This document shows positions 3,504-53,991 of a DNA stretch of 64,000 bases, in pieces. Made by a program: the position numbers and the translations under genes. The number at the start of each line of letters is the position of its first letter. Position 1 is the stretch's first letter. The stretch is taken from NCBI GenBank assembly GCA_964016885.1, contig OZ024743.1, positions 214,582,001 through 214,646,000 of the forward strand, given 5' to 3'. The notes below the pieces were generated by a model. The model saw only the letters and a program-made list of their open reading frames with translations, was not told where the DNA came from and searched no databases. The stretch is from Eledone cirrhosa. Taxonomy: Eukaryota.

Positions 3504-3540
<37 letters not shown>

Positions 3541-17400: not shown

Positions 17401-18412
17401 CATTTCAGAAGTCCCATTTACTGCTGAAATGGAAAACACAGAAAAAGCAAAGCAGGTAAAAGTAACTGCAAAGAAAGAACTGCTACAGAAACTGGCTAAG
17501 AAATGGCAAGAAAAGCCTCTGTATGGAAAATACCCAGAGCGAGCTAACAATCCTGATGTTGACAAAACATTAACCCATCAGTGTTTGGCATCCACTGGAC
17601 TGAAATCGGAGACTGAAGGACTGATTATATCGGCACAAGATCAGTGTCTGCCAACAAAAAATTACCAAGCCAACATAATAAAAAATGGGTGCAGCCCATT
17701 ATGCCGTGTATGCAAAAAACAACCAGAGACCATTGACCATATAATTTCAATGTGCAGTCTTATAGCTCCAAGGGAATACCTAAACAGGCATGACAGAGCT
17801 GCACAATACATACATTGGATAATGTGTAAGCATTTTGACCTGCCCCATCAAAAGAATTGGTGGGAGCATCAACCACCTCCCATACATGAAAAAGATCACA
17901 TCTCAATCTTGTGGTACTTTAACATCCAAACAGACCGAAAAATAGATGCAAACAGACGTGATATAATATTGAAGGACTTTAAAAAGAGGGTATGCCTGCT
18001 AATTGATATGTCTGTTCCAATAGACAAGAATGTATCTATAAAAACATTTGAAAAATTGAGCAAGTATAAGGACCTGGAGATAGAAATTGGAAAAATGTGG
18101 AAATTGAGAACTAAAACAATACCAGTGGTTGTAGGCGCTCTGGGAATGATACCTAAGGGGTCTAATGATTACATATCGCAAATCCCAGGAAAACCGCGTA
18201 TAGGAGAAATACAAAAGATAGTATTAATGGGAACTGCCCATATACTAAGGAAGATTCTGTCAATATAATTACATCACAAGTCTAAACACTAAAGATGCAT
18301 GTGTGAATATATATGTTCTTTCTTGAACATGGCGGACCTTGTTGTCTCTTGAGGTCACTGGTTGTGACTTGGTGATAACTCGTATGAACATAAAGCAAGA
18401 TAAATGCAACTG
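14465..18412 (+). mobile_element. Near full-length R4/Dong-like non-LTR retrotransposon (subfamily A)
   Basis: Single disrupted ORF with RT, CCHC finger and RLE endonuclease. The 3' UTR ends GATAAATGCAACTG directly into (TAA)n. Confidence 0.9.
14629..18268 (+). pseudogene. Dong/R4 ORF (RT + CCHC + RLE), with premature stops and frameshifts
   Basis: SPGKD, NYRPITCL, EQKGC, WIDYKKAFDS, (G>stop)IFQGDSLSP, YMDD broken near 16725, YKYLG, CRVC..ETIDHIISMC, RHD, R(R)D..D..K..KY. Confidence 0.9.
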
Positions 18413-18430
18413 TAATAATAATAATAATAA

Positions 18431-19648
18431 TAGAAATAGATAGAATATATCTCCCTAGGAAAGAAGGAGGACGTGGGTTAATCCAGTTAGACATTGCGTT
18501 CAAAACTGCAACAATTGGATTATCTACATATCTAAGGGAATCACATGATTGGATGATCAAACTCGTTTTGAAACACGAAAGCATCAAAAGATCATATTCC
18601 ATTACAAAAGATGCACAAAGATACAGTAATGGACTAGCAATTTCAGAAGTCCCATTTACTGCTGAAATTGAAAACACAGAAAAAGCAAAGCAGGTAAAAG
18701 TAACTGCAAAGAAAGAACTGCTACAGAAACTGGCTAAGAAATGGCAAGAAAAGCCTCTGTATGGAAAATACCCAGAGCGAGCTAACAATCCTGATGTTGA
18801 CAAAACTTTAACCCATCAGTGGTTGGCATCCTCTGGACTGAAATCGGAGACTGAAGGACTGAGTATATCAGCACAAGATCAGTGTCTGCCAACAAAAAAT
18901 TACCAAGCCAACATAATAAAAAATGGATGCAGCCCATTATGCCGTGTATGCAAAAAACAACCAGAGACCATTGACCATATAATTTCAATGTGCAGTCCTT
19001 TAGCTCCAACCGAATACCTAAACAGGCATGACAGAGCTGCACAATACATACATTGGATAATGTGTAAGCATTTTGACCTGCCCCATCAAAAGAATTGGTG
19101 GGAGCATCAACCACCTCCCATACTTGAAAAAGATCACATCTCAATCTTGTGGAACTTTAGCATCCAAACAGACCGAAACATAGATGCAAATAGACCTGAT
19201 ATAATTTTGAAGGACTTTGAAGAGGGTATGCATGCTAATTGATATGTCTGTTCCAATAGACAAGAATGTATCTATAAAAACATTTGAAAAATTGAGCAAG
19301 TATAAGGACCTGGAGATAGAAATTGGAAACATGTGGAAATTGAGAACTAAAACAATACCAGTGGTTGTAGGCGCTCTGGGAATGATACCTAAGGGGTCTA
19401 ATGAGTACTTATCGCAAATCCCAGGAAACCCGCGTATGGGAGGAATACAAAAGATAGTACTAATGGGAACTGCCCATATACTAAGGAAGATTCTGTCAAT
19501 ATAAGTACATCACAAGTCTAAACACTAAAGATGCATGTGTGAGTATGAATGTTCTTTCTTGAACATGGCGGACTTTGTTGTCTCTTGAGGTCATTGGTTG
19601 TGACTTGGTGATAACTCGTATGAACATAAAGCAAGATAAATGCAACTG
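18431..19648 (+). mobile_element. 5'-truncated Dong subfamily A copy
   Basis: Near-identical to 17195-18412, retains the RPD endonuclease motif, and is flanked by (TAA)n. Confidence 0.9.
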
Positions 19649-19670
19649 TAATAATAATAATAATAATAAT

Positions 19671-20797
19671 ATGTGGATTGAGACAGTACAAGAGGAGAAT
19701 AGTGACCAGGCACACGAACAAACTGATTTGAGTATCACAGTTGAAACTCTTAAGAGGCAGGCTAAAAAACTAACCAACTGGAAATCACCAGGCCCAGATG
19801 GTGTGCAGGGGTATTGGATTAAAAGTATAACATCCCTCCACCCGAAACTGACAACCATGTTCAATGACTGCTTGATGTCATGTGAGGTATCAGAGTGGTT
19901 GACAAAAGGTACCACAGTTCTGATAATGAAATACCGAATCAAGGGTAATGATGTTACCAACTATAGACCTATTACATGTCTATCCGTAATGTGGAAACTG
20001 TTAACAAGCATTGTATCTGAGGAAATCTACCATCACCTCCACATGAACAACTTGTTACCGGACGAAGAGAAAGGATGCTGAAAGAAGTCCCGTGGTACAA
20101 AGGACCAGTTACTTCTTGATTAGATGGTAATGAGAAATTGCAAGAGTAGACACACTGGTCTTGCCATAGGATGGATTGACTACAAAAAGGCATTTGACAT
20201 GGTTCCTCATTCTTGGATAACCAAAAGCCTAGAGATCTTCAAGGTGGCAGATAATATCAGACAGTTGTTGAGTAAAAGTATGAAGTCCTGGAAAACAGAG
20301 TTAACATCGGCTGGAGAAACTTTGGGAGGCGTGAGGATCAAGAGAGCTATCTTCCAGGGAGATAGTCTGTACCATCTGTTGACAGACAAGAAACTGGAAC
20401 ACAATAGACCAGACTTGGTGGTTTTGGACAAGGAAAAAATATTGTGCCTGATTGTGGATGTAGCCTGCCCATTCGACACACGAGTGCAAGAGAAGGAGAG
20501 GGAGAAATTAACCGATACCAGGACTAAAAGTGGGAGGTAAAAAGGATTTGGAACAGCCACGAAGTCAAAGTGGTCCCGATTGAAATAGGCGCATTAGGTA
20601 CTATCTCAAAGAGTTTCCAAGGATGGTTAAAGAAAATATTCCCGCCCCGCTTTTTGGAACCCTTCCAAACGTATGCTTGTGTGAACAGCAAGAAACGCCG
20701 ATACGCCCTGAATATCTGAGGCTGCAGGTAGTGGCTTGATATTCACTACAACAAACTTTCCAGTTAAATAACATCAATGACTGAGACTCAAAGAACA
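19671..20797 (+). mobile_element. Dong/R4 subfamily B, 5'-truncated with an internal deletion
   Basis: SPGPDG, NYRPITCL, WIDYKKAFD and QGDSL join directly to TDKKLEHNRPD (deletion near 20370). Ends in (TAA)n. Confidence 0.85.
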
Positions 20798-20814
20798 ATA
20801 ATAATAATAATAAT

Positions 20815-20851
<37 letters not shown>

Positions 20852-21094
20852 TTTTCTTTATTAACCACAAGGGTTTACATAAAGTAGACATTAAGGACAG
20901 TACAGGACAATACAGAACGGTACAAATGGGCATTTCTGCGTGTAAAAAAAACGGAGGTTGAAATAAAATAACAAAGAAAAATTCCCCAATAGGGGGGAGA
21001 CTTCCGAGGCACATTTGTGGAGAAAACCCATTAAAAGACCACAGTGGCCCTGACCACCAGGGCAAGTGCCCTCTCCCAGTTTTCCACCTTTAAT

Positions 21095-24000
21095 TTACAG
21101 ACACATACTCAGAGAAGGCCCATTCATTCGGGCCATACTTGCTTCTCTCACCCATCTTTCAACAAAATGCTGGGAAGAGAGCACTTCCCTCTCTACCCTG
21201 ATTTTCCTTTTCAAATGAAATTTGAAAAAGTTAATCAGGGCATCACCGAAGAGGTAAGTGCTCGTCTTCAGCCCTTTCAAACGTGTCCACCATACTATCT
21301 CTTTCGCCATGGCCACCAGACAGATAAAAACTGCCTGCCCTTCCCGGCTAAAGGAAGGGGGCGGGGCAATCCTCACGATGGACTCAGCTGATAGCTGGAT
21401 CCGTCCTACACGTGACAGCAGGTGTTCGACATAAACCCACAAGTCAGCAATGCTCGGACACTGGACGAGTGCGTGCAGGACGGTTTCGTCGCCCTGCGCG
21501 CATCTCGGACATGCCCGGCTGACGGCACCTCCATGCCTGTAGAGTTTATCCCGAACTGGCAAAGCTCCTCGGTAGCACTGCCAGGCCAGGGATTTCTGGA
21601 AGTTGTCCATAGGCCCCGGCCCGAAAATCCTTCCGAAGAGATTGGCTAGTTGATTTTTGTCGACGCCTAGAGTTTCTCCAAGTACGTCGTCGCTCTTCCC
21701 CTCCACTAATCCCCTATAGAACGCCAAGATGGAGTTTCCACCGATCACATTGCCCGATTGGTCGAGGGCTGTGAGCGCCTGAAGACATTCCAGTCTCCAA
21801 GCGCTCCCTCTCGGTCTTCGCTTGACCCAGGACTGCAGCTCCGTCAAAGAGACGAGCTGGGGAAAAACGTGTCTCGCAAACGGCGACCACACCTGATCAC
21901 CGTCGAGGAAGAGGTGGAGATGTCGTAGCCTGAGCGCGTGTCTGCGCATCATCAGCCACGGCACGCCCAGCCCTCCACGTAGCGGGTGTTGACAGCAGAT
22001 GGACCGCCTGACCATCGGAGCGCGTCCCTTCCACAAGAAGCGAAAGAGCAAACGCTCCAGCGCAGTCAGGCGGGGCTTAGGACAAGGTACGACAGTTAGG
22101 CGGTAGTAGTTGACGGACGGAATGTACGCGTTAGCCACCTCCGCTCGACCTTTCAGGGATAGCTTCCTCTCGGCCCATTTCTGGGTGAGAGAAGCCACAC
22201 TGATCGTCACCTCGTCCCAATTTTTGTCCATCTGGAGCCCCTAGCAATTTAACCGGTCCGTCCGTCCAGCGCCCGACGACGCTGTTGGACGGCATGGACC
22301 TGCCTCTCCAGGTGCCGAGCTGCAGGCCACTGACTTTTCCTGGTTGATCATTGCTCCTGTCACCGCTTCGTATTCTCTTAGTGTAGTGCCGTCGCCACGA
22401 TGCGTTTGGCGTTGACACCACTACGGTGACATCGTCGCCATAAAGCTGACACGGATCTTCCGCATCCTAGTTCGCGCGGGACCCCTTCAACGTCTCCAGT
22501 TTGTGCAGTAATGGCTCGAGAGACAATACGTACAATAGGGACGAGAGAGGACATCCTTGGCGGACCGAGCGCATGGTGTTGAACGGTTCCAAAAGGTGAC
22601 CGTTCACTCTCACTACAGAGCAGATGTCGCTGTGCATGGCAGCGATCCAGCCTCTGAAAACGGGCCCAAAGCCAGCCGCCCTCAGGACTGCCGCTAGGTA
22701 ACGATGGTCGACCCTATCGAAGGCTTTCGACTGATCTACATTGATCAAATACCCACCCGTGCCAGGTTCCCTAGCTACCCTCTCTACGATGTATCGCATG
22801 AGGTGGAGGTTGTCGTGAATGGATCTGTCGGGAATAGCGCATGTCTGTGCCTCTCCCACCAGACCACCAACGACAAGCGCCAACCTATTTGCTAGCACCT
22901 TGGCCAAAATCTTGAACTCTGTGTTTAGCAGAATTATGGGCCTAAAATTATCTATGTTATCCCCCTTGTTCGGATCCTTTCTCAGCAGCGCCACCGCTCC
23001 TCGGCTCACACAGCTGGGAATTCTCCCGTTATGTTGCCAGTTGCAGTAGACGTCCGCCAAGAGGCCTCCGAACAAGTTCGGCATTTGTACGTAAAGTTCA
23101 TAGGGCAGACTATCTAAACCAGGCGATGTACCCCTTGTGCAACTAGTCATTGCATCCCGTACTTCAGCGGTTGTTATCGGCTTTTCGCAACACTCCGCCT
23201 CAGTGGCCGAAAGCCGCGGCAGTCCGTCGAGGTAGACACTAAAGTCCACCCCTCGATCCGGCCCGCCACTGCCCCCGAACAGTTGAGCAAAGTGTCGCTG
23301 AAAAGCTTCACACATTTGCCCGGGATCGAGTAGCATGCGCCCGTCGTGGTCCACCAAAGACCGGTTCGTGGCTTTGTTGCCACGACGCGCCATCGCCACT
23401 CGGGCTCATTAAACGGCTTTCGTCCCCTCGTGTCTGAGAGCACGCACCCTAGCTCTGACAACGCAGCCTTCGTGTTTTGCATTGAAGAATTGGTCAAGGG
23501 CCAATTTCGCCGCAAGTACGTCGGTCGCGATGCCTTTGCTAAGCGCCTTATCTAATTTTCTAACTAATTCTACCTCTGCTCTATTTTTCTCTATTACTAA
23601 AGTCTTACTAAACCTAATGGACTCTAATCTAATTGCTCTTTTCAGAGCAAACCACCACTTGTTGTTGACGATGGCCCCCGTCAACGCCCGCTTAACTAGT
23701 TCGCTAATCCGGTCTCTGTAGGCCTTGCGCGCTGGTAAGGACGCGTTTAGCTTCCAGTAGCCGGGTCCTCGTCTATGAAGCCTATCTAAGTCAAGCACAC
23801 AGATCACGAATTTGTGGTCCGTGTAGCTGACTATCTTGAATTGTGGACAGCCTATGCTATACCTATCTATTTCCCTACAAAATACTCTATCTAGATATGA
23901 TCTGGATGACCCTATACGATTTGTCCAAGTCCACATTGGTACATTCCGGAAATCCATTCGGTACCTGTCAGACAGTTCAAAACGTCTGAGCAGGTTGGTG

Positions 24001-24494
24001 AGACTCTTGCACCCTCCTTCCCTATCCACTAATCCTACACAATCCCAGCGTGCATCTAAGATCCCGTTCCAGTCGCCCACTAACACTAAAGAGCGGGACG
24101 TTCCAAGAAAGGTCACCAGACGCCGGAAGAAATCAGGCCGCCCTGCTCCTGTCGGGGCATAGACGGCCACTAACCTGAAAGCTTGGCCGTTTCCGCTGGT
24201 CACGTCCAGCACCACCAACTTACCTTCTGGGTCCAGGAAGATGGCCCGTATGGCAAGATCCAAACCTCTCCGAAATGGCACAGCAACTCCTCCCCCCGAT
24301 CCCGGACGGCTGGGAGATGCGTACACATCGTAGCCGCCGAAGATCGGTGCGAAAGCCTGTGCTTTGGAGATTCTGGTCTCGCTGATGGCCACTACATCTA
24401 TGTTTAGTGACCTGAGGTCGTTGAGCAGGTGGCCCTGCTTCCATGACGACCCCGAGCCACGCGCATTTATGCTGCCTATTCTGAGTGAGGTCAT
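21095..24494 (-). pseudogene. Tx1 ORF2 (APE endonuclease, RT, C-terminal Zn finger), frameshifted
   Basis: SINARG, ISETR, YAP, GDWN, YLDR and YTDH (APE); SPGLD, NFRPI, DQSKAFDRVDH and VRQGCPLS (RT); SLKGRAEVAN; CPRC..ETVLHALVQC. Confidence 0.9.
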
Positions 24495-24528
24495 GTTGAA
24501 AAGGAGTGGAAAAGATGGGAAAGACCAC

Positions 24529-26434
24529 TTACCTTACTTCTCCTAGGGGAAGGACGGTTTTTCCATCCTTTTCACTGCTTGTGGCCTCCTCAGGAAGGAT
24601 GTCCTTATAAATCCTCCTGGAGAGTGCTTGTCGGAAGTCTCCGATGTCTTTGGGGAATTATTTGTTTTAGTGTCATGTACGTTTTCTGTGTGATGCGAGT
24701 GATTTGTATGTGTGGAGGTGGGGTGAATTTTGGGGTTGTTGTGTAGTCATTTTCTGTGATGCTGGTGTTGTGTTGGATGTAGTGTAATAATTGCTTGTTG
24801 TTCAAATTTAATGCTGTGTAGTGTGTATCGTTTTGGTTGGTTTGTTTTGTTTGCGTTTGTTGTGGGTTTGTTTCTGTTTCGCATTTTGGTGACTTTTGTG
24901 GTGTAGGTGATGGTGGTGTTGGGGTTAATGATGGTGATGGTGTTGGTGTTTGGGTTGATGGGGTTGGTGATGCTGGTGTGGATGGTGGCATATCTGTCCT
25001 AACTTTTTTGTTTCTTAATTTATTTGTTTCCCTTTGTATTTTGTTTTTGGAGGGGGAAGGAAGAGAATGTTTTCTTTTTTGGTTTCTCTTTTTTTTTCCG
25101 GATATCGTTTCCCACTCCTCGTCGTCACAATCTGTCTCCAGTTGTGATAGGCCGGGGAGTGGAAAATGCTCCACACCCGTTAGTTTTGGTTGTGGCGTGG
25201 TGGATGTGTAGGCGCTGGTGCTAGTTCTGAAGCGTTGGGTGGTGGTGGTGTTGGTTTTGCTGGTGGTGGTGATGGTGTTGGTTTTGCTACTGTTGCTGGG
25301 GTTGTTGCTGTTATAGTTGCTTCTGTTGTTGCTGCCATCTCTGCTACTGGTGGTGTTGATGGTTGTGTCACTGGGGTGGGTAGGAGAGGTGGCCTCAACC
25401 TTTTAGCCTGAGGGCAGAAAGCCCTTAGGTGGGTTCCTTCACCACAAACGACACACCTAGGTCTTCTGCCCTCGACAATTACCGTGAGGTGGCTGCCGTC
25501 AGTGAAGTCTATTACCTCTGGGATCTCCTCAATGCTTTTTTGGTCCGCTTGGATCAGGAGCTCCATCCCAGATCCGGACCAGTTCTCCTGCTTTTCTTTT
25601 GCTATTGCTATTATTTTCGTGTTGGCTTCGATGCCGGCGAGGACAGCCGCTATTAGCCAGGGAATTTCGATGGCCGGTGGAACGTGGGTCACCCTGATCT
25701 TTACGAGTCTCTGGCCACAATAGCTTGGGACGAGTGTGAAGTCGTCACTTCTTAATGGGGCCATGGAGTGTTCTCTAGCCTCCTCTGGTGTTTCAAAGAA
25801 CACGTCCACGGTTCCATACTTTTGCCCACGTCTGATGTGGGTTTTTCTTGCCCACACATGTCCCAAAGCTTTTTGGATTTGGGACTCGGATGCCCGTTCC
25901 ACTTGGCGAGATTTTACATTTATTGTTCTATACGACACGGTGCATAGGCGCCGATGCTCCATTTTATTAGGTGTGTGTGTGGGGAGGGGGGGGTGAGGCT
26001 GACCCTGTACCCATCTTTCTTTTCCATTTGTTTGGCATTTTCTAAATCCTCCTGAGTTACCGTAAATGCTTCGAACTGTTTTGCTACTCTGGCGAAACTG
26101 AGGGGGGTTTTATAATGTCAGTGTTGTTGTTGTTGCTATCGTTAATATTAATGTTAGTTTCAGTTGTGGTGGTGGTGAGGTCAGTCGTCTTTGGTGGGGA
26201 AGAGTCCATTTTGCTTGATTTCATTTCGACATCACGAGTTAATTTATTTTTTTCTTCTTTTGTTTCTGTTGTCGCGGTGGTGGTGGTGGTGGTGGTGGTT
26301 GTCGCGGTGGTGGTGGTGGAGGCTTTAACACCTGCAGTCATTGGTAATGGCGGGAAATGAATGTCTGCCTGAGACAAATTTAAAATATTGCTAGTGCTTA
26401 TATTTTTTTTTTGTGTTGGCAAACGTAGTAACAT
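24529..26434 (-). pseudogene. Tx1 ORF1 (gag-like, Thr/Pro-rich linkers), fragmented
   Basis: ORFs 26084-26434, 25180-25962 and 24605-25174. CVVCGEGTHLRAFC fits CX2CX4HX4C. Confidence 0.75.
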
Positions 26435-26721
26435 TTACAATGGTGGTCTCGGTGTGGGGTGTTAATTTGTGAGGAAGGCTTTCAGCTGCTTCGTGCAGAG
26501 GTGAATTAGCCATTTTTTTCAAAGACATTTTTTTGATAATAATACAAGTTTAGATTTTGGGCACAAGGCCCCAATCTTTTTGGGTGTCCTTTTCGGAAAA
26601 CAATGTATGTGCGCTTATAAACAGTTAACAATAAAATTTTCCATAAATGACAATTTTTAACAAACCTAGATAACAAACCTTTGCGGAGCTCACGATGATA
26701 CGATTTACTACGTAGGTCGCC

Positions 26722-26764
<43 letters not shown>

Positions 26765-26767
<3 letters not shown>

Positions 26768-27234
26768 GATGCAAATAGACCTGATATAATACTGAAGGAC
26801 TTTAAAAAGAGGGTATGCCTGCTAATTGATATGTCCGTTCCAATTGACAAGAATATATCTATAAAAACATTTGAAAAATTGAGCAAGTATAAGGACCTGG
26901 AGATAGAATTTGGAAAAATATGGAAATTGAGAACTAAAACAATACCAGTGGTTGTAGGCGCTCTAGGAATAATACCTAAGGGGTCTAATGATTACTTATC
27001 GCAAATCCCAGGAAACCCGCGTATAGGAGAAATACAAAAGATAGTACTAATAGGAACTGCCCATATACTAAGGAAGATTCTGTCAATATAAGTACATCAC
27101 AAGTCTAAACACTAAAGATGCATGTGTGAGTATGTATGTTCTTTCTTGAACATGGCGGACCTTGTTGTCTCTTGAGGTCACTGATTGTGACTTGGTGATA
27201 ACACTTATGAACATAAAGCAAGATAAATGCAGCT

Positions 27235-27235
<1 letters not shown>
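26765..27235 (+). mobile_element. 5'-truncated Dong subfamily A copy
   Basis: Matches 17940-18412; (TAA)n on both sides. Confidence 0.9.
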
Positions 27236-27280
<45 letters not shown>

Positions 27281-27287
27281 TAATAAT

Positions 27288-27395
27288 GATTTCTTTATTA
27301 ACCACAAGGGTTTACATAACATAGACATTAAGGACAGTGCAGGACAATACGGGACGGTACAAATGGGCATTTCTGCGTGTAAAACACAAAAACAG
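27288..27395 (-). mobile_element. ~108-bp 3' tip of Tx1 subfamily A
   Basis: Matches 20851-20950; (ATT)n on both sides. Confidence 0.85.
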
Positions 27396-27433
27396 ATAAT
27401 AATAATAAGAAGAAGAACAAGAAGAAGAAAGGG

Positions 27434-28248
27434 GGACTGAAATCGGAGACTGAAGGACTGCTTATATCAGCACAAGATCAGTGTCTACCAACAAAAAATT
27501 ACCAAGCCAACATAATAAAGAATGGATGCACCCCATTATGCCATGTATGTAAACAACAACCAGAGACCATTCATCATATAACTTCAATATGCAGTCCTAT
27601 AGTTCCAACCGAATACCTAAACGTGTACGACAGAGCTTCACAATAGATACATTGCATAATGTGTAAGCATTTTGACCTGCCCTCTCAAAAGAATTGGTGG
27701 GAGCATCAACCACCTCCCGTACTTGAAAAAGATCACATCTTAATCTTGTGGAACTTTAGGATCCAAACAGACCGAAAAATAGATTTAAATAGACCTGATA
27801 TAATACTGAAGGAGTTTAAAAAGAGGATATGTCTGCTCTTTGATATGTCCGTTCCAATAGACAAGAATGTATCTATAAAAACATTTGAAAAATTGAGCAA
27901 GTATAAGGACCTGGAGACATAAATTGGAAAAATGTGGAAGTTGAGAACTAAAAAAATACCAGTGGTTGTAGGTGCTCTAGCAATGATACCTAAGGGGGCT
28001 AATGATTACTTATCGCAAATCCCAGGAAACCCGCGAATAGGAGAAATACAAAAGATAGTACTAATGGGAACTGCCCATATACTAAGGAAGATTCTGTCAA
28101 TATGAGTACAGCACAAGTCTAAACACCTAAAGATGCATGTGTGTGTATGTATGTTCTTTCTTGAACATGGCGGACCTTTTTTCTCTTGAGATCACTGGTT
28201 GTGACTTGGTGATAACACGTACGAACATACAGTAAGATAAATGCAACT

Positions 28249-28249
<1 letters not shown>
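27434..28249 (+). mobile_element. 5'-truncated Dong subfamily A copy (more diverged)
   Basis: Matches 17597-18412 and ends ...GCAACTG|(TAA)n. Confidence 0.9.
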
Positions 28250-28301
<52 letters not shown>

Positions 28302-28303
<2 letters not shown>

Positions 28304-31300
28304 TTTATTTATTGGCCACAAGGGCTGACATCAAGAAAAACATTACAGAAGGCACAGGACAGTACAGGACGATACGATGTGGGTTTTGTGCGTGTAAATA
28401 TTTTTATTATGTATATAAGAAAAGAAAAAAAAGGACATAGAAACATATATATATCTAAACAATAAAAATGAAAATTGAAACAATGAAAAATCACCAATAG
28501 GGGGGAAACCTCCGAGGGTTACTCGTGGCGAAAACCACACAAAAGACCACGGCCACCCTGACCACCAGGGCAAGCGCCCTCTCTCAATTTTTCCATCTCT
28601 CAAACTACAGACATATATTCAGAGTGGTCCTGTTCACTCTGTCCATTCTCGCTACATTCACCCACCTTTCAACAAACTTGCTAGAAAGCAGCACTTGCCT
28701 CTCCACCCTGATTTTCCTCTTCAAGTGAAACTTGAAAAAGTTAATTAGGGATTCGCCGAAGAGGAAAGTGTATGTCTTTAACCCTTTTAACCTTCTCCAC
28801 CACACAATCTCTTTCGCCATGGCCACCAGGCAGATGAAAACCGCCTGCCCTTCCTCCTCGAAGGAAGACGGCGAGACCATCTGAACAATGGACTCAGTCG
28901 ACAACCGGATCAGTCTCACACGCGACAGCAACTGTTCGACATAGCTCCACAAGTCAGCAATGATCGGGCACTGAACGAGTGCGTGCACAACGGTTTCGTC
29001 GCTCTGTGCGCATCTAGGACAGGCTCGGCTGGCGGCACTTCCGTGCCTGTAGAGCTTATCTCGAACCGGCAGCGCTCCCCGGTAGCACTGCCAGGCCAGG
29101 GATTTGGGGAAGTTATCCATAGGCCCCGGGCTGAAAGTTCTCCGGAAGAGAGGAAACAGCTGATCTTCTTTGGCGCCCAGGATCTCTCCGAGAAAGTCGT
29201 CGCTCTACCCCTCCACTAGTCCTCTATAGAACGCCGAGGTGGATGTTCCACCGATACTGGTGCCCAGCTGGGAGAGGACAGTGAGCGCCTAGAGACATTC
29301 CAGTTTCCAAGCGCTATCCTTCGGTCTTTTTCTGACCCAGGACTGCAGCTCCGTCAAGGAGACGAGCTGTGGGAAAACGTGCCTGGTGAACGGCGACCAC
29401 ACCCGTTCACCATCAAGGAAGCACCAGAGATGTCGCAGCCTCAGCGCATGTTTGCGCATCATCAGCCATGGCATGCCCAGTCCTCCACGCAACGGGTGTT
29501 AACAGCAGATTGATCCTCTGACCATGGGAGCGCGTCCCTTCCACAAAAAGCGGAAGAGGAGGCGCTCCATGTTGGTGTAGTTGGGCTGGAGCAAGAGACG
29601 ACGGTGAATCGGTAGCAGATGACGGATGCGATGTACGCATTCGCCACCTCCGCCCGGCCTTTCAGGGACAGCTTCCTCTCAGCCCATTACTGGGTGAGGG
29701 AGGCCACCCTGCTCGTTACCTCGTTCCAGTGTTTCTCCATCTGGAGGTCCGGTCCGAACTAGACCCCTGAAATTTAACCGGTCCGTCCGTCCAACGCCCC
29801 ACGACGCTGTCAGACGGCATGGACTTGCCTCACCAGGTGCCGAGCTGCAAGCCCACCGACTTTTCCTGTTATATCTTTGCTCCTGTCACCGCTTCGTATT
29901 GCTTGAGAGCGGTGCCGAGCATCTGGACGTGTCTGGTAAACGACACCAGCACGGTGACGTCGTCAGCGTAATCCAACTCGGATTTTTCGCATTCTAGTTC
30001 GCGTGGGACGCCCCTCATCGCCCCCAGTTTATGCAGTAACGGCTCGAGAGCCAATACGTATAAGAGGGACGAGAGGGGACAACCCTGTCGGACTGAGCGC
30101 ATGATGCTGAACCGCTGAAAACGGGCCCGAAACTGGCTGCCTCGAGGAGTGCCGCCAGGTACCGATGGTCGACCCTATCGAATGCTTTGGATTGATCCAA
30201 GTTGATCAGGGCCCCACCTTGCCCACTCCTTAACCACCCTCTCTATGATGTATAACATGAGGTGGAGGTTGTCGTGTATGGATCTCTCCGGAGTGGCGCA
30301 TATTTGCGCTTCTCCCACCAGACCCTTGACGACAAGCGCCGGGTCTTATTCGGGTCTTTTCTCAGCAGCGTCACTGCTCCCCGGCTCACAAAACTGGGAA
30401 TGCTCCCGTCCTGCTGCCAGTTGCAGTAGACGTCTGCCTAGAGGTCACCGAACAAATGCATAAAGCTCGTAGGGCAGACCATCTAAACCTGGCGATTTAA
30501 CCCTTGTGCAGATAACCATCGCTTCCTGTATTTCACCGGCTGTTATTGGCTTTTCGCAACACTGTGCTGCGGTCGTCGAGAGCCGAGGCAGTCCGTCGAG
30601 GTATGCACTGAAACCATGCCCCGATCCCGGCCGCCGCCGCTCCCGAACAGTTCAGCAAAGTGCTGCTGAAAAGCTTCACACATCCGCTCGGGTTCGAGCA
30701 TCACGCACCCGTTTTGGTCAGACAAAGACCGAATTGTGAATTTGTCGCCACGTCGCGACTCAACCACCTGGGCCAATTGGACGGATTTTGTCACCTCGTG
30801 TTTCAGAGCACGCGTCAACGCCCGCTTAACTAATACGCTAATCCGGTCTCTGTAGGCTTTGTGCGCCGAGAAAGACGCGTTCAGCTTCCAGTAACCAGGC
30901 CCTTGTCTATGAAGTCTGTCTATGTCGATCTCACAGATCACAAATTTGTCGTCTGTGTAGTCGACTATTCTAAATTGTGGACAACTTATACTAGCCTTAT
31001 CCAGTTCTCTGCAGAATACACTATCGAGATACAATCTGGATGACCCGATGCGGTTTGTCCACGTCCACATTGGCACATTCGGGTGATCCAGTCGATACCT
31101 GTCAGACAGTTCAAAACGTCTGAGCAGGTTGGTGAGGCTCTTGCACCCTCCTCCCCAATCCCCTAGCCCCACACGATCGCAACGTGCATCTAAGATACCG
31201 TTCCAGTCGCCCACTAACAGTAAAGAGCTGGACGTTCCAAGAAAGGTCTCTAGACGTCTGAAGAAATCTGGCCGACCTGCCCCTGTTGGGGCTTAGACGG

Positions 31301-33927
31301 TTACTAGCCTGAAAGCATTGCCTTTGCTGCCGGTCATGTCCAGCACCACCGACTTACATTCTGGGTCTAGGAAGATGGCCCGTATCGGGAGATCCAAACT
31401 CTCCGAAAAAGGACGGCAACCTCTCCCCCCGATCGTGGACGGCTGGGAGATGCGTATACATCGTGGCCGCCGAAGATCGGTGCGAAGGCTTGTGCTTCGG
31501 AGATTCTGGTTTCACTGATGGCCACCACATCTATGTTTAGTGACCTGAGGTCATTGAGCAGGTGTCCCTGCTTCCAAGATGACCCCAGGCCACGTGCATT
31601 TATACTGCCTATTCTGAATACAGCCATGTTGGATGAGAAACGGGGCAAGTGAGAAAGGGTCACTTACCTTGTTCGTGTGGTGAAGGGACAGTAGAACCGT
31701 CCCTTTCGCTGGTCATGGGTGTTTCCAAGAGGTTATCAGTGTATATCCTCTTGGTAACCGACCCTCTGAAGTCTCCAACTGAGTTGGGGAATTTTTGTTT
31801 TAAAGGTTTGTACTGTTCTATTGAGATTTCGATGATGCTTATGTTTGTCGGGAGAGTTCTTGGTGTTGGTGGGGTGTAGTAGTTGTTTTCTGTGATGTCT
31901 GTGTGCTGCTTTATATATTGTATGAGTTTTTTTTTTGCCATGTTTATGGCTGTGTACTTTTTTGGGGGAGGGGTGATTTTGTTGCTGTTTGGTGTGTGTG
32001 TCTTGTTGTCTTTGCGTTGTTGGTGTTTGTGGTGGTGATGGTGGTGGTGTTACTGCAAGTTTCCTTGCTGCCTTTACCCCCTCTTTGTATGCCTTCGCTT
32101 TTGGAGGGTGAATCTAAGGGTTGTTTTGTTTTTTGTTTTTTGTGGCAGAACGTTTGCCACTTCACTCCCGCCTCAAACTCCATGTCGGATTCCGTGGCGT
32201 CTGGGAGGGGTATGTGCTCCACGGCTGTTGGTGGTGGTAGTGGACCCCTCTTCGGCAATTTTGTTGCTGGTGTAGCTACTTCGAATGTAGCTATTGGTGT
32301 TGCTGCTACTGATGATGCTGGTTTAGTTGTCCGTGGCCTTGGTACGGGTGCTACGGACGTTGCCCTCCTACTCACCGTGGAAGGGGCTTCTTCGTTTGTT
32401 GCCTGCCCTGCTACCTAGCAGCAGAGCAGGTATTGGAAGGAGAGGGGCCTTCTTCGGCGTCTTATGCGGACAAAAGGCCCTGAGGTGACCCTTCGACCCC
32501 CAGAGATAACAATTTGGCCGTCTTCCTTCTACACTTATAGGGAGTTGGAGTCCTTCCTCGATGTCTATGATATCGGGGATAGCGTCGATACATTCCTGGT
32601 CAGTTTGTATAAGCATTTGCATGCCTATACCTGATCAGTTCCCTCTCCCTATTTTTTCTACTTGCAGCATGGTCGCCCTGTTCTCGATTCCAGCAAGGAC
32701 AGACGCGGCCAGCCAAGGTATGGACACGTCGGGTTGGTCCTGGGTCACTTTAACTCTCACAATGTTCTGCCCGCAGTAGGAGTGCACCAAGACTATCTCC
32801 TCACTCTTTAGGGTTTCCAAAGAGTGAGAGTTTACTTCCTGGGGGTGGCGAAAAGTACGTTTACTGTGGCGTACTTTCTGCCTCGGGTGATTTGGGTCTT
32901 GCGTGCCCAGACGCACCCCAAGGCCTTTTGGATTTGAGCCTCCGTGGCTCTCTCCGCTCGATGTGAAATGTTGCTTACGGTGCGGTAAGTCCTCGTCCGT
33001 AGCTGCTGGTCCTTGACAAAATCGGGTGGAGGTTTCAGGGAAACTCATTTGCGCTTCTTATCACCATGGCCCTTGCGACTGCCATCTCCTCCTCTGTGAC
33101 TAACACTGTCTCGATATTTCGGGCGACACCTGCAAAAGAAGTGGTCCCTTTTTCAGCAGCACCACTATTGCTGCCGCTACTGGTCTTACTGGTGGTGCTG
33201 AGATCGCTATTACAGGTATCGGTGTCATTGTTGTTGTTTTCGTTGGTACAGTTGTTGGTGTTGTTGTTGTTTTCGTTGATACTGTTGCTGTTGTTACTGT
33301 TATTGTGGCTGTTGTTATTATTGTTGTTTTTGTTGATACTGTTCCTACTATTATTGTGGTTGTGGCTGTTGTTATTGTCATTTTTATTGTCGTTCTCGAC
33401 CTTACCGCTGTTATTTTTGTTATTATCGTTCTCGACTTTGCCGCTGTTATTTTTGTTATTGTTGTTCTCGACTTTACCGCTGTTATTTTTGTTGTTGCTG
33501 TTGTTATTGATGGTGTTGTTGTTGGTGTTGTTGTTGGTGTTATTGTTGGTGTTGTTTGTGTTAGAAATATTTGTTAATTTTAAATCTGTAACAATCTTTT
33601 TTTTCCTTTGTAATATTTTCGTTTATATACCTCTGGTTGACATGCTGATAAATTCTCCCTCTCTCTGTGTTGTCTTACAGCGCTCTCTCTCTCTCTTTCT
33701 TGTGTTATCAATGTTGAAATTGAAAAAATATATATTTTTACACAAATACGAATACGACACCCCGTAAACGGGTGCCGTATTATTTACTAGTGAACACCTG
33801 TATCAGGTGGGTCACTTCTTCTAAACTTTTATCAAATTTAAAACTTGAATAAAAGGTTTAGAACGGTTGAAAACGAGGTAAACCGTTGAAAAAAAATGGA
33901 GGCGATAAGAAACGTGGCTTCACCACC
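28302..33927 (-). mobile_element. L1/Tx1-like subfamily B, full-length ends with internal deletions
   Basis: 5' junction is (ATT)n|GGTGGTGAAG. ORF1 is divergent (EGRRPNCYLWGSKGHLRAFC). ORF2 starts at 31627 (MAVFRIGSINARG) with APE, RT and Zn-finger fragments. 3' junction is AATAAATAAATC|(ATT)n. Confidence 0.9.
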
Positions 33928-33945
33928 AATAATAATAATAATAAT

Positions 33946-36900
33946 GCTTTCTTCATTAACCACAAGGGTTTACAGAAAATATACATTAAGGACAGTACAG
34001 GACAATAGAGGGCGGTACAAATGGGCATTTCTGCGTGTAAAAAAACAAAAACAGGATGTCACAAAAAATAACAATGAAAAATTCCCCAATAGGGGGGAGA
34101 CTTCCGAGGGACATTTGTGGAGAAAGCCCATTAAAAGGCCACAGTGACCCTCACCCAATTTTCCCCCTTTAATTTAAGGACACATACTCAGAGTAGGCCC
34201 ATTTACTCGGGCCATACTTGCTTCTCTCACATATCTTTCAACAAAATTCTGGGAAGAGAGCACTTCCCTCTCTACAGTGATTTTCCTTTTCAAATGAAAT
34301 TTGAAAAAGTTAATCAGGGCATCACCGAAGTGGTAAGTGCTCATCTTCAGCCTTTCAAACATGTCCACCATACCATCTCTTTCGACATTGCCACCAGATA
34401 GATAAAAACTGCCTGCTCTTCCCCGCTAAAGGAAGAGGGCGGGGCAATCCTCACGATGGACTCAGCTGATAGCTGCAGTTGTTGAAGCCGCTACCCCCAC
34501 CAGCACCACAGCGACAACAGAAACAAAAGACAAAAAAAATTATCTCGTGAAATCGAAATGGATTCACCCAGAATGGACTTTTCCAAACCGAACACCACTG
34601 ACACCACCACCACCACCACAACTGAAATTAAAAATAAGAATAACAAAAATAACGATAACAACAAGAGCAACATGATTTTCCTTTTCAAATAAAATTTGAA
34701 AATGTTAATCAGGGCATCAGCCAAGAGGTAAGTGCTCGTCTTCAGCCCTTTCAAACGTGTCCACCATACTATTTCTTTCGCCATGGCCACCAAACAGGTA
34801 AAAACTGCCTGCCCTTCCCCGCTAAAGGAAGAGGGAGGGGCAATCCTCACGATGGACTCAGCTGCAACAATCCTACACGCGACAGCAGGTGTTCGACATA
34901 AACCCACAAGTCAGCAATGCTCGGACACTGGACCAGTGCGTGCAGGACGGTTTCGTCGTCCTCCACGCATCTCGGACATGCCCGGCTGACGGTACCTCCA
35001 TGCCTGTAGAGTTTATCCCGAACTGGCAAATCTCCTCGGTAGCACTGCCAGGTCAGGGATTTCTGGAAGTTTTCCATAGGCCCGGCCCGAAAGTCCTTCC
35101 GAAGAGATTGGCTAGTTTTTTTCGTCGACGCCTAGAGTTTCTCCAAGTACGTCGTCGCTCTTCCCCTCCACTAATCCTCTATAGAACGCCAAGGTGGAGT
35201 TTCCACCGATCACATTGACCGATTGGTCGAGGGCTGTGAACGCCTGAAGTCATTCCAGTCTCCAAGCGCTCCCTCTCGGTCTTCGCTTGACCCAGGACTG
35301 CAGCTCCGTCAATGAGATGAGCTGGGGAAAGACGTGTCTAGCAAACGGCGACCACACCTGATCACCGTCGAGGAAGAGGTGGAGATGTCGTAGCCTCAGC
35401 GCGTGTCTGCACATCATCAGCCACGGCATGCCCAGCTCTCCACGTAGCGGGTGTTGACAGAAGATGGATCGTCTGACCATCGGAGCGCGTTCCTTCGTAA
35501 AAAAGCGAAAGAGCAAACGCTCCAGCGCAGTCAGGCGGGGCTTAGGACAAGGTACGAAGGTCAGCCGGTAGTAGATGACGGACGCGATGTACTACTTAGC
35601 CACCTCCGCTCGACCTTTCAGGGATAGCTTCCTCCCCGCCCATTTCTGGGTGAGAGAAGCCACCCTGCTCGTCACCTCGTCCCAGGTTTTGCCCGTCTGG
35701 AGGTACGGACCGAACCAGACACCTAGCAATTTAACCGGTCCGTCCGTCCAGCGCCAGACGACGTTGTTGGACGGCATGGACCTGCCACTCAAGGTGCCTA
35801 GCTGCAGGCCCACTGACTTTTCCTGGTCGATCATTGGTCCTGTCACCGCTTCGTATTCTCTTAGTGTAGTGCCGATCGCCTCGATGTGTTTGGCGTTCGA
35901 CACCACTACGGTGACATGGTCCGCATATGCTGACACAGATCTTCCGCATCCTAGTTCGCGCGGGACCCCCCTCAACGTGACCAGTTTGTGCAGTAATGGC
36001 TCGAGAGTCAATACGTACAAGAGGGACGAGAGGGGACATCCTTGGCGGACCGAACGCATGATGTTGAACGGTTCCGAAAGGTGACCGTTCACTCTCGCCA
36101 CAGAGCAGATGTCGCTGTGCATGGCAGCGATCCAGCCTCTGAAGATGGGCCCAAAGCCAGCCGCCGTCAGGACTGCCGCTAGGTAACGATGGTCGACCCT
36201 ATCGAAAGCTTTCGACTGATCTAAATTTATGAAGGACCCACCCATTCCAGGTTTCCTAGCTACCCTCTCTACAACGTATCGCATGTAGTGGAGGTTGTCG
36301 TGGATGGATGTGTCGGGAATGTCGCATGTTTGCGCCTCTCCCTCCAGACCACCAACGACAAGCGCTAACCTCTTTGCTAGCACCTTGGCCAACATCTTGA
36401 ACTCTGTGCTTAGCAGAGTTATGGGCCTGAAATTATCTATGTTATACCCCTTGTTCGGATCATTTCTCTGCAGCGTCACATCTCCTCGGCTTAGAGAGCT
36501 GGGAAATTCTCCCGTTCTGTTGCCAGTTGCAGTCGACGTCCGACAAGAGGCCTCCGAACAAGTCTAGCATATGTACATAAAGTTCATAGGGAAGACCATC
36601 CAAACCAGGCGATTTACCCCTTGTGCAACCAGTCATTGCCTCCCGTACTTCAGCGGCTGTTATCGGCTTTTCGCAACACTCCGCCTCAGTGGCCGAGATC
36701 TGCGGCAGTCCGTCGAGGTAGACACTAAATTCCATCTCTCGATCTGGACCGCCGCTGTCTCCTAACAGCTGTGCGAAGTGTCGCTGAAAAGTTTCACACA
36801 TTTTCCCGGGGTCGAGTAGCATGTGCCCGTCGTGGTCCACCAAAGACCGGATCGTGGATTTGTTGCCACGAAGCGCCTCCGCCTCTCGGGACCATTGAAC

Positions 36901-39900
36901 GGCTTTCGTCCCCTCGTGTCTGAGAGCACGCACCCTAGCTCTGACAACGCAGCCTTCGTACTTTGCATTGAAGAATTGGTCGAGGGCCAATTTCGCCGCA
37001 AGTACGTCGGTTGCGATGCCTTTGCTAAGCGCACGTCTAACCTTTTAACTAGTTCTCCCTCTGTTCTATTTTTCTCTATTGCTAATGCCTTACTAAACCT
37101 AATGGACTCTATTCTAATCGCTCTTTTCAGAGCAAACCACCACTTGTTGTTGACGATGACCCCGTCAACGCCCGCTTAACTAGTTCGCTAATTCGGTCTC
37201 TGCAGGCCTTGCGCGCTGGTAAGGACGCGTTCAGCTTCCAGTAGCCGGGTCCTCGTCTATGAAGCCTATCTCATTCAAGCACACAGATCAGGAATTTGTG
37301 GTCCGTGTAGCTGACTATCTTGAATTGTGGACAGCCTATGCTATACCTATCTATTTCCCTACAAAATAATCTATCTGAGCAGGTTGGTGAGGCTCTTGCA
37401 CCCTCCTCCCCTATCCGCTAAACCCACACAGTCCCAGCGTGCATCTAAGATCCCGTTCCAGACGCCTACTAACACTAAAGAGCGGTACGTTCCAAGAAAG
37501 GTCCCCAGACGCCGGAAGAAATCAGGCCGCCCTGCTCCTGTCGGGGCATAGACGGCCACTAGCCTGAAATCTTGCCCGTCTCCGCTGGTAACGTCCAGCA
37601 CCCCCAACTTACCTTCTGGGTACAGGAAGATGGCCCGTATGGCGAGAACCAAACCTCTCCGAAATGGCACAGCAACTCCTCCACCCAATCCAGGACGGGT
37701 GGGAGATGGTTACACATCGTATCCGCCGAAGATCGGTTCGAAGGCCCGTGCTTCGGAGATTCTGGTCTCGCTGATGGCCACTACATCTATGTTTAGTGAC
37801 CTGAGGTCGTTGTGCAGGTGGCCCTGCTTCCATGACGACCCCAAGCCACGCGCATTTATGCTGCCTAATCTGAGTGAGGTCATGTTGAAATGGAGTTGAA
37901 AAGATGGGAAAGACCACTTACCTTACTTCTCGTAGAGGAAGGATGGTTTGTCCATCCTTTTCATTGCGTGTGGCCTCCTCCGTAAGGATGTCCTTATGAA
38001 TCCTCCTGGAGAGTGCTTGTCGGAAGTCTCCGATGTCTTTGTGGAATTTTTGTTTTAGTGTCGTTTGCGTTTTCTTCGTGATGCGAGTGATTTGTATGTG
38101 TGGATGTGGTGTGAACTTTTGGGTTGTTGTGTAGTCTTTTTCTGTGATGCTGGTATTGTGTTAGATGTAGTGTAATAATTGCTTGTTGTTCAAATTTAAT
38201 ACTGTGTAGTGTGTATCGTTTTGCTTTTTTGCTTTGTTTGCGTTTTTTGTGGGTTTGTTTCTGTTTCGCTTTTTGGTGACTTTTGTGGTGTTGGTGATGG
38301 TGGTGTTGGGGTTAATGATGGTGATGGTGTGGGTGTTTGTGGTGATGGGGTTGGTGATGCTGGTGTAGATGGTGGCATAGCTGTCCTAACTTTTTTGTTT
38401 GATAGTTTATTTGTTTCCCTCTGTATATTTTGGGGGGAGGGGAGGGAAGAGGATTTTTATTTTTTAGTTTCCTTTTCTTTTTTTCTTTTTTCCTGATAAC
38501 GTTTCCCACTCCTCGTCGTCACAATCTGTCTCCAGTTACGATAGGTCGGGGCGTGGAAAATCCTCCACAGGCGTTGGTTTTGGTTGTGGCGTGGTGGATG
38601 GTGTAGGCGCTGGTGCTAGTTCTGGTGCGTTGGGTGGTGGTGCTGTTGGTTTTGCTACTGTTGCTGGGATTGTTGCTGTTACAGTTTCTTTTGCTGCTGT
38701 TTCTGCTACAGTTGTTGCTGCCATTTCTGCTGCTGGTGGTGTTGATGGTTGAGTCACTGTGGTGGGTGAGAGAGGTGGCCTCAACCTTTTAGCCTGAGGG
38801 CAGAAAGCCCTTAGGTGGGTTCCTTCAACACAAACGACACACCTAGGCCTTCTGCCCTCGACGATTACGTTAAGGTGGCTGCCGTCAGTGAGGTCTATTA
38901 CCTCTGGGATCTCCTCAATACTTTTTTGGTCCGCTTGGATCAGGAGCTCCATCCCAGATCCGGACCAGTTCTCCTATTTTCTTTCGCTATTTCGATTATC
39001 TTGTGTTGGCTTCGATGCCGGCGAGAACGGCAGCCATTAGCCAGGGAATTTCGATGGTCGGTGGAACGTTGGTCACCCTGGTCTTCACGAGTCTCTGGCC
39101 ACAATAGCTTGGGATGAGTGTGAAGTTGTCACCTCTTAATGGGGCCATGGGGGGTGGGGGCGAGGCTGACCCTCTACTCATCTTTCTTTACCATTCTCTT
39201 GGCATCACAGAAAAAGACTACACAACACACCAACATTTCACACAACCTCCACACATACAAATCAATCGCATCACACAGAAAACGTACACGACACTAAAAC
39301 AAAAATTCCCCAAAGACATCGGAGACTTCCGACAAGCACTATCCAGTAGGATTTATGAGGACATCCTTCCGGAAGAGGCCAAAAGCAGTGACAAGGATGG
39401 AGAAACCATCCTTCCTCTACGACAAGTGAGGTAAGTGGTCCTTCCCATCTTTTCCACTCCAGTTCAACATGACCTCACTCAGAATAGGCAGCATAAATGC
39501 GCGTGGCTTGGGGACGTCATGGAAGCAGGGCCACCTGCTCAACGACCTCAGGTAACTAAACATAGATGTAGTGGCCATCAACGCGACCAGAATCTCCGAA
39601 GCACGGGCCTTCGAACCGATCTTAGGCGGCTACGATGTGTACGTATCTCCCAGCCGTCCTGGATCGGGCGGAGGAGTTGCTGTGCCATTTCGGAGAGGTT
39701 TGGTTCTCGCCATACGGGCATCATCCTGTACCCAGAAGGTAAATTGGTAGTGCTGGACGTGACCAGCGGAGACGGGGAAGGTTTCAGTCTAGTAGCCGTT
39801 ATGCCCCGACAAGAGCAGGGCGGCCTATTTCTTCCGGCGTCTGGAGACCTTCTTGGAACGTCCCGCTCTTTAGTGTTAGTGGGCGACTGGAACGGGATCT

Positions 39901-42900: not shown

Positions 42901-43345
42901 CGAGATAATTTATGTTTTTCTTTTGTTTCTGTTGTCGGTGTGGTGGTGGTGGGGGTGGCGGCTTCAACACCTGCAACCATTGGTAATGGCGGGAAATGAA
43001 TGTCTGCATGAGACAATTTTAATTATTGCTAATGGTTATATTTTTAGTGTTGGCAAACGAAGTAATAATTACAATGGTGGTGTCGGTGTGAGGTGTTAGT
43101 TTATGAGGAAGGTGTGGCTGTGAGTCGTCCATGATTTTTTAAAGAAATTTTTTGTTTGATAATTATAAAAGTTTAAATTTTGGGCTCAAGGCCCCAATCT
43201 TGTTTAGTGTCCTTTTCCGAAAGCAAATTTTGTGACCTTATAAACAGTTAACAACAAAAATGATCCATAAATGGCAATTTTAAACAAACGGAAACCACAA
43301 AACTTTGCGGAGCTAACGATGATACGATTTCATGCGTAGATCGCC
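33946..43345 (-). mobile_element. Rearranged Tx1 subfamily A with a ~3.7-kb internal inverted duplication
   Basis: Normal 3' end at 33946 and 5' end at 43345, both in (ATT)n. 34480-38150 (-) is mirrored by 39202-42972 (+). Confidence 0.85.
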
Positions 43346-43346
43346 A

Positions 43347-43377
<31 letters not shown>

Positions 43378-43378
43378 T

Positions 43379-44106: not shown

Positions 44107-44137
44107 CAATAATAATAATAACAACAATAATAATAAT

Positions 44138-44390
44138 GATATTATAGGGGACAAAACGAAAACACAGAGACACTGGTAGTTTACAATGAAAGTGAGAAAA
44201 AACAATAAAAAAAAACACAACTATCAAAATATAACAATACAAATTCCACAATAGGGGGGAGAACCCCGCAGGGGTGACTAATCGCGATCCAACCGACGCT
44301 TCGAGGCCACACGTAAAGGCATAGACTGTGGCCTTGATAAATGCGTTAAAACGACCTTCATCGGATGTAAACTCAAAAACATCCATCGTT
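44138..44390 (-). mobile_element. 3' fragment of a probable third Tx1 subfamily (C)
   Basis: Shares the TCTCCCCCCTATTG 3'-UTR motif, at similar spacing from the (ATT)n junction, with subfamilies A and B. Confidence 0.55.
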
Positions 44391-46150: not shown

Positions 46151-46397
46151 TTTAGTGTAATTCTAACACCAAACTACTTTTAAACAAACTCTAAATGTTC
46201 TTATGTGTTGACATATATTTTTAAAACAAAACTTCTTAGGGACATAGGTCACACACTAAAAACTCATGCACTATCACCGAACTATATTATTACTCCTACA
46301 AATAATGCCCGCATCAACTTATAACTTGCTGTCTCTTGATATCTCCTGGTGAATCAGCTCGCACAAACACAAAGCAAAATGCAAACAACAATATAAT

Positions 46398-51155: not shown

Positions 51156-51226
<71 letters not shown>

Positions 51227-51229
51227 GAG

Positions 51230-53990: not shown

Positions 53991-53991
53991 A

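Follow-up and report, generated by a model that had tools for sequence, protein, structure and literature searches.

A young (ATT)n-associated group of L1-superfamily retrotransposons in the octopod Eledone cirrhosa, with a (TATC)n sister group and a probable target-derived 5′ leader

The window analyzed here is a stretch of 64,000 nucleotides from the octopod Eledone cirrhosa (GenBank assembly GCA_964016885.1, contig OZ024743.1, forward-strand positions 214,582,001–214,646,000), and coordinates are counted from its first letter. It is a retrotransposon stack in which (AAT)n tracts form the joints between elements. The minus-strand members are long interspersed nuclear elements (LINEs) with an apurinic/apyrimidinic-type endonuclease (APE), assigned below to two families, A and B, of a group whose copies adjoin (ATT)n at both ends. 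They alternate with plus-strand LINEs of a different type, and a short interspersed nuclear element (SINE) lies further along. The features are listed below (ORF, open reading frame; RT, reverse transcriptase; a slash in a sequence marks an element junction).

20797–20850, no strand: (AAT)18 tract, serving both as the (TAA)n terminus of a Dong/R4-like LINE on the plus strand and as the 3′ target flank of copy A1
20851–26721, minus strand: full-length family A copy A1, 5.87 kb, 96% identical to an intact A copy
20863–20875, minus strand: predicted 3′ hairpin with a 4-bp stem and a CUUGU loop, followed by the 12-base end AATAAAGAAAAC
21095–24533, minus strand: ORF2 of A1 in three pieces, with APE endonuclease, RT, and zf-RVT (Pfam PF03372, PF00078, PF13966)
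24605–26109, minus strand: ORF1 of A1, in pieces, with nothing above the Pfam cut-off
26722–26766, no strand: (AAT)15 tract at the A1 5′ junction, (ATT)n/GG
26767–27236, plus strand: 5′-truncated Dong/R4-like LINE with a (TAA)n end
27237–27287, no strand: (AAT)17 tract common to the Dong-like end and the following stub
27288–27396, minus strand: 109-bp, 5′-truncated stub of an A/D 3′ end, with its 5′ junction in the phase ATTAT/
27434–28250, plus strand: Dong/R4-like LINE fragment with a (TAA)n end
28251–28301, no strand: (AAT)17 tract, the 3′ flank of the family B copy
28302–33927, minus strand: family B copy with both ends kept and three ORF2 deletions of about 65, 85, and 230 bp relative to L230
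33928–33945, no strand: (AAT)6 tract between the B 5′ start and the next A-like 3′ end
33946–43345, minus strand: rearranged A-like block, not one clean copy, with its 3′ end at 33946 and its 5′ start at 43345
43346–43378, no strand: (AAT)11 tract with one variant unit, the 5′ flank of the A-like block
45861–46151, plus strand: SINE copy and a partial tandem copy, with a CUUGU-loop hairpin at the 3′ end, ending in ATT

Both ORFs of copy A1 are disrupted by stops and frameshifts. In the 3.0-Gb genome that was searched, ORF2 is open over 1,150–1,157 codons in seven of 40 A-type regions and in none of 40 B-type regions. According to Pfam, intact ORF2s contain an N-terminal APE, an RT, and a C-terminal zinc finger, and their best match among solved structures is human L1 ORF2p (E about 1e−50), far above R2. 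A separate ORF1 lies upstream in families A–E (about 500–700 codons from stop to stop) and contains a CCHC motif, seen as CxxCxxxxHxxxxC in intact A copies and as a weak Pfam zf-CCHC match (E = 0.004) in B. With these domains, the two ORFs, and the 5′ truncations and target-site duplications described below, the elements belong to the L1 superfamily. The only match carrying the name Tx1 was named automatically and is 31% identical (P0006), and among named proteins, one from Argonauta hians comes closest (72%). The first-pass annotation had proposed a sequence-specific APE-type lineage, and the N-terminal APE of ORF2, together with ATT-like junctions at the sampled A and B 3′ ends that were found, bears this out.

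In the window, the four 3′ ends on the minus strand (20851, 27288, 28302, and 33946) run directly into (ATT)18, (ATT)17, (ATT)17, and (ATT)6, and the three 5′ starts (26721, 33927, and 43345) read (ATT)n/GG, the tract at 43345 having one ACT unit. Families A and B keep these junctions in common although they have diverged elsewhere, with 83% DNA identity in ORF2, 64% in part of ORF1, and no likeness in the 5′ untranslated region (UTR). All of this agrees with the first-pass description. Genome-wide junction samples were drawn with queries internal to the element (for each sample, the 30 best of 40 scored loci); loci obtained with a query that itself contained six repeat bases were biased and were excluded from the 3′-end counts. 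The A 3′ end was found at 29 of 30 loci, all entering ATT-like sequence (28 ATT and one CTT, including the window copy), and the B 3′ end was also found at 29 of 30, again always entering ATT-like sequence and never poly(A). All 30 sampled A 5′ ends read (ATT)n/GG. For Tx1 elements, passages of PMC4494074 speak of a target preference when over 20% of flanks are of one type, a level far exceeded in each of these three samples.

The exact pattern of the 21-base end followed by ATTA occurs 8,186 times in the genome, with 0 occurrences of a reversed control. The same end followed by AAAA occurs just 15 times, and none of these is a tail: all 15 return to the terminal C ahead of the tract, as in AAAAC-AAAAC-ATT. 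Poly(A) tails, which the first-pass annotation had reported to be lacking and whose presence at non-ATT sites it regarded as decisive against its reading, were thus ruled out, the 15 cases being re-starts of reverse transcription. Family A is also young, since 36 of 40 listed matches tie at the best score with 100% identity over 301 bp. The ATT-targeting LINE group is young and abundant.

Neighbors in the stacks yielded three further ATT families, D, E, and F, giving five in all (A, B, D, E, and F) with unrelated 5′ ends; ORF2 identity to A is 96% for D, 74% for E, and about 71–79% for F. In D (L288 and L290 versus L162), an unrelated 5′ UTR and an ORF1 only about 41% identical to that of A amount to a swap of the 5′ module. 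This wider set corrects one part of the first-pass annotation, which had described a fixed ATT/GG start: the first G is common to all five ATT families, but the second is not the rule. Among 29 distinct B starts, 19 read ATT/GTTGG, eight ATT/GGTTGG, one ATT/ATTGG, and one, the window copy, ATT/GGTGG, while D starts with GAA and E with GAC. GG is regular in A alone, and the rule of the lineage is therefore a fixed G, ATT/G.

Because pure tracts mask target-site duplications, we turned to ends with just two ATT units behind them (90 such sites genome-wide, of which 60 regions were fetched and 62 ends read, 54 truncated and eight full-length); in pure tracts, the duplication length is unreadable, and single-base flaws on either side are uninformative. 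The 54 truncated copies included 13 with clean duplications of 13–19 bp (lengths that include 1–5 bases of possible microhomology), two ambiguous cases, and 39 with none. All 13 clean duplications begin immediately after the last C of the element with no unit added, indicating that (ATT)n is the target and not a tail. The base preceding the duplication is a pyrimidine in 12 of the 13. Two further duplications agree, one of 15 bp (L035) and one with a one-base indel (L382). L1 target duplications are of similar size.

The 5′ junctions of full-length copies are locked to one phase of the repeat. Full-length A starts of the form ATTATT/GG number 1,633 genome-wide, and only 12 have a base other than T before GG; all 12 lie behind long tracts, the final base being altered in 11 and one start being shifted by a single base, and none has a unique duplication. 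Nine exceptions were found in D, eight of them after long tracts like those of A. Among 33 truncated internal junctions beside ATT tracts (a set that includes one full-length B with a changed first base), 11 are incompatible with the ATT/ phase, and the 10 without microhomology split 4/2/4 across the three phases. Since the full-length junctions are phase-locked whereas the truncated ones fall in all three phases, a 5′ (AUU)k leader carried by the RNA is suggested; in other words, the full-length RNA probably starts inside the upstream repeat. Seven of the eight full-length copies at short sites have no duplication and pure (ATT)n/G, and the eighth has a long duplication followed by (ATT)7. 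Three of the eight are D copies of different subgroups that share one site in the A 5′ UTR. That site is an ATTATT about 180 bases into the UTR, beside which the three independent D copies end (L383, L409, and L442); a composite D+A unit copied three times was considered and ruled out, given that the D copies belong to different subgroups. At an off-target site, a full-length copy of family C, described below, has a duplication, after which come a G and bases resembling TATC; this was seen at two loci, which may represent a single event.

In every family, and also in a SINE, a hairpin of 3–4 bp with a CUUGU-type loop is predicted some 12 bases upstream of the 3′ terminus. Across nine hand-picked, related ends, 32 of 36 cells were paired, three of four pairs had changed on both sides, and one in 500 shuffles scored as high; a regex survey of hairpins, which mostly caught SINE ends and missed A and B ends, was excluded from this covariation. 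Among 94 distinct SINE ends, 60 continue as AATTATT. On this pattern of conservation, we lean towards recognition of the hairpin for the start of copying. SINEs with L1 tails are rare according to passages of PMC3747384.

A second set of ends revealed a sister group with a different target. Genomic ends whose second base is not T numbered 1,825, with the end GGCT in 86 of the first 100 listed, and among 30 loci that were read, 19 enter TATC, one CATC, eight AAT-type sequence, and two other sequence. The corresponding family C has an ORF2 67% identical to that of A and open in three loci. C and a relative, C2, are flanked by (TATC)n on either side and have a 3′ end nearly the same as that of the ATT families, and C duplications measure 11–16 bp in four loci. 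Copies of C have repeatedly inserted in a minisatellite unit containing CTATC, giving AAT-type junctions (L259–L262 and L278–L280). Two more 3′ end types also lie beside (TATC)n, with UUUAU and CUAGU loops and intact stems (L282:6273–6312 and L284:1183–1222), and these probably represent further TATC families.

In an RT tree of 42 rows, C and C2 grouped with E and F at 100/99, and A, B, and D grouped with the Argonauta protein at 96/95, with weak support at the deep nodes. On the simplest reading of this tree, ATT would have been the earlier target and TATC the later one. The stem of the TATC pair was 0.25 long in an APE tree of 15 rows versus 0.11 in the RT tree. When the APE sequences were compared (excluding two rows, L294 and L216, from neighboring A/D copies), 24 columns were fixed across all five ATT families and different in both TATC families, and two of these fall in the β-hairpin loop, which aligns with the loop exchanged in the L1 chimeras 2V0R and 2V0S. 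This β-hairpin affects cleavage specificity in TRAS1 and R1Bm according to excerpts of PMC1919474. From these comparisons, and from the different target behind nearly the same 3′ end, the endonuclease is probably the determinant of specificity.

We give a rough probability of 0.7 to the following scheme as a whole, in which (ATT)n is targeted without a tail. The endonuclease likely nicks the lower strand at 5′-AATAAT^R-3′ (R, purine), and the last C, shortly downstream of the predicted 3′ hairpin, is the likely starting point of reverse transcription. The full-length RNA likely begins within the upstream repeat, and the copied (AAT)k end of the cDNA would then pair with the target, setting the 5′ junction at ATT/G. 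A precedent is found in R2, in which 5′ junctions are uniform when the RNA keeps upstream target sequence and variable otherwise (as described in parts of PMC3774820).

Several observations weigh against this scheme or parts of it. One D exception (L434) has an unrelated 5′ flank. Because 72% of the truncated ends at short sites (39 of 54) also have no duplication, the seven of eight full-length copies without one are not significant alone, and starts that end in T but are not ATTATT are covered by samples, the genome-wide count being of the non-T class. Because the short sites were chosen by their ATTATT, the AATAAT hexamer is partly built in, and many of the truncated copies with duplications are older (88–95% identical to A) and perhaps inserted less strictly than young A does. 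The hairpin is short (3–4 bp), its folding scores are weak (z from −2.6 to +0.3), it is absent from the best fold of the SINE, and its structure was derived from the same related sequences that were used to score covariation. Finally, the APE tree leaves the root within the group unresolved and the 5′ modules have been swapped, so the order from ATT to TATC is read from the RT tree.

In an unlikely alternative, close to what the first-pass annotation had suggested, the RNA would read through its 3′ end into (AUU)n, and annealing of this extension to the nicked strand would be the main source of both the specificity and the tail-less junction. Transcripts are normally cleaved 10–30 nt downstream of AATAAA, a distance that would place the cleavage within the repeat here, where only six bases separate AATAAA from the end. 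Annealing of read-through RNA is known to aid R2Ol and R1Bm (parts of PMC6530143 and PMC7265360), and four of 29 B ends read AAATC/ATC/ATT (L103, L105, L111, and L116), which fits a re-start on AUU; an ATC first unit was seen in 0 of 52 AAAAC ends, and the four may themselves be re-starts. However, the eight of 30 TATC-sister ends at AAT-type sites lack TATC, extra ATT units were seen at 0 of 62 short-site ends (weak evidence, because the sites were chosen for two units), and the 15 A(n)C re-start products are explained no less well by an A-run behind the last C. Furthermore, read-through at the 3′ end leaves the phase lock at the 5′ end unexplained. It may well act as a helper within the scheme of endonuclease targeting and a 5′ leader.

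We also regard as improbable an RNA without a 5′ leader, starting at G, with ATT/G fixed by a second nick at ATT^ or by later slippage that homogenizes the tract. This explanation is simple, microsatellites do slip after insertion, and the G at the start of all five ATT families could be a copied cap. A starting G has been regarded as a copied cap in L1, and the shared G here is perhaps, speculatively, a fixed copy of the cap. The truncated junctions speak against a leaderless RNA, because they occur in all three phases and the 13–19-bp duplications likewise span all phases, as do the absence of a unique duplication from all 12 non-T A starts and the lack of a duplication in each of three D copies that inserted independently at one unique site. 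A third possibility, that the elements produce (ATT)n themselves as a tail, in the manner of RTE, L2, and I elements, with copies merely stacking in each other's tails, is very improbable and largely refuted already. In its favor, tract length is somewhat greater on the 3′ side (a median of 12 perfect units, versus eight on the 5′ side, in 53 full-length copies), and many neighbors are family members. Against it, the duplications start at the base following the last C, the elements have tracts at both ends with unrelated sequence beyond them, and nearly the same 3′ end runs into TATC in the sister family.

Among known systems, the closest in organization are the Tx1 families Kibi, specific for (TC)n, Koshi, specific for (TTC)n, and the crocodilian families specific for (TTCC)n and (TTTC)n (parts of PMC4494074 and PMC3812793). 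Like them, the octopod elements are two-ORF LINEs of the L1 superfamily with an APE and microsatellite specificity, in which the repeat unit varies between related families. Unlike in Kibi and Koshi, the junction units are ATT or TATC rather than TC or TTC; the targets given in the passages of these two papers that were consulted include neither (ATT)n nor (TATC)n, and the host is an invertebrate, an octopod. In the same passages of PMC3812793, TAA is given as a target of Dong, DongAg, and DongBg only. The ATT group shares this repeat, (TAA)n, with Dong of the R4 clade, and Dong-like copies share its tracts in the window, but the group differs in having an N-terminal APE and two ORFs where Dong has a single ORF with a C-terminal restriction-like endonuclease (RLE), and in lying in the opposite orientation. 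The uniform full-length 5′ junctions resemble those of R2 with upstream 28S sequence on its RNA (parts of PMC3774820), although R2 is an RLE element in ribosomal DNA with a ribozyme, and here an APE element would carry a simple-repeat leader.

Human L1 structures (ORF2p, PDB 8UW3 and 8SXT; endonuclease, 1VYB; loop chimeras, 2V0R and 2V0S) were used for comparison. The octopod elements resemble human L1 in ORF2 homology and in the putative nick at a T^purine step, but L1 has a poly(A) tail, a weak site preference, and relaxed RNA recognition, whereas the ATT group is tail-less with a predicted, seemingly conserved 3′ hairpin. Stringent-type L1 elements of maize and sorghum offer a possible parallel for the hairpin, in that an L1-clade LINE and a SINE share a 3′ stem-loop with compensatory changes; those elements, however, are from plants and end in poly(A) (both points from excerpts of PMC3747384). 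An annotation of Octopus vulgaris lists 13 recently active L1-Tx1 and five Dong-R4 families, and L1-Tx1 elements or SINEs have been named in other mollusc studies, in each case with no targets stated in the portions of text consulted (PMC13282606; PMC8967140, PMC4758252, and PMC10294476). A literature search, outside whose range lay Repbase, Dfam, the supplement of PMC4494074, and the octopus library, found no published ATT- or TATC-specific Tx1/L1 family. A metagenome scan gave distant relatives only (25–44%), with an (ATT)n run in 0 of 80 loci and several ending in poly(A). One distant L1-type relative in that scan (L324:4430) adjoins (ATC)21 at its end.

Microsatellite-specific Tx1 families are already known, and the ATT group is not a new kind of system. 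What sets it apart are the apparently unlisted targets, (ATT)n and (TATC)n, an apparent switch between them in recent times, and a 5′ leader that probably derives from the target. Microsatellite targeting by APE-type LINEs is described as not well understood in part of PMC3812793. In this case, a single genome contains two young sister groups with different targets, nearly the same 3′ ends, and intact ORF2s that are 67% identical, and this makes the specificity residues directly testable, with 24 candidate columns, two of them in the hairpin loop. If true, a target-derived 5′ leader in an APE element would mean that the R2 rule of precise 5′ joining also holds for a second class of enzyme. There is also a broader picture, to which we give somewhat less than even odds, in which an octopod L1/Tx1-type lineage reaches R2-like precision through a repeat-reading endonuclease, a 3′ hairpin, and a target-derived 5′ leader, having recently switched from (ATT)n to (TATC)n by a few endonuclease changes with the 3′ end kept, while swapping 5′ UTR/ORF1 modules freely and driving an abundant SINE.

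With more than 8,000 ends, the group shapes the genome and builds long stacks with Dong-like LINEs. The repeat remains on both sides of each insertion, and this likely explains the head-to-tail stacking of APE LINEs with Dong-like LINEs facing the other way. In addition to those listed above, Dong/R4-like copies or fragments with (TAA)n ends lie on the plus strand at 14629–18432, 18433–19670, 19671–20796, and 43379–44107, so that all Dong-like copies in the window are oriented opposite to the APE elements. In the first of these, an RT match spans 14629–16596, and a CCHC and PD..D-type motif lies at 17312–18268; from this C-terminal motif, we take the plus-strand neighbors to be Dong/R4-like elements of the RLE type.

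The A-like block at 33946–43345 contains inverted duplicate arms (34474–37376 versus 40067–42975, 91% alike), and the resulting fold-back (34474–42975) has short swapped pieces at 34493–34672, within a single pair of A-like ends. Another minus-strand end entering (ATT)n (…CCCCTATAATATC) lies at 44138–44260, without the hairpin, and matches the 3′ UTRs of A, B, and D over 36 bases only. A search of sequencing runs listed no RNA run, a result that does not bear on expression; contigs under two other organism labels span the stretch searched for, one across the junction into the repeat and one with a loose (TAA)n end, which is a hint only. Inverted duplicated segments that are 90–94% alike occur within 51223–55483, around 51.2–52.2 and 53.8–55.5 kb, and a self-inverted repeat of 442 bp at 3066–3507 (85% alike) is possibly a small DNA transposon.

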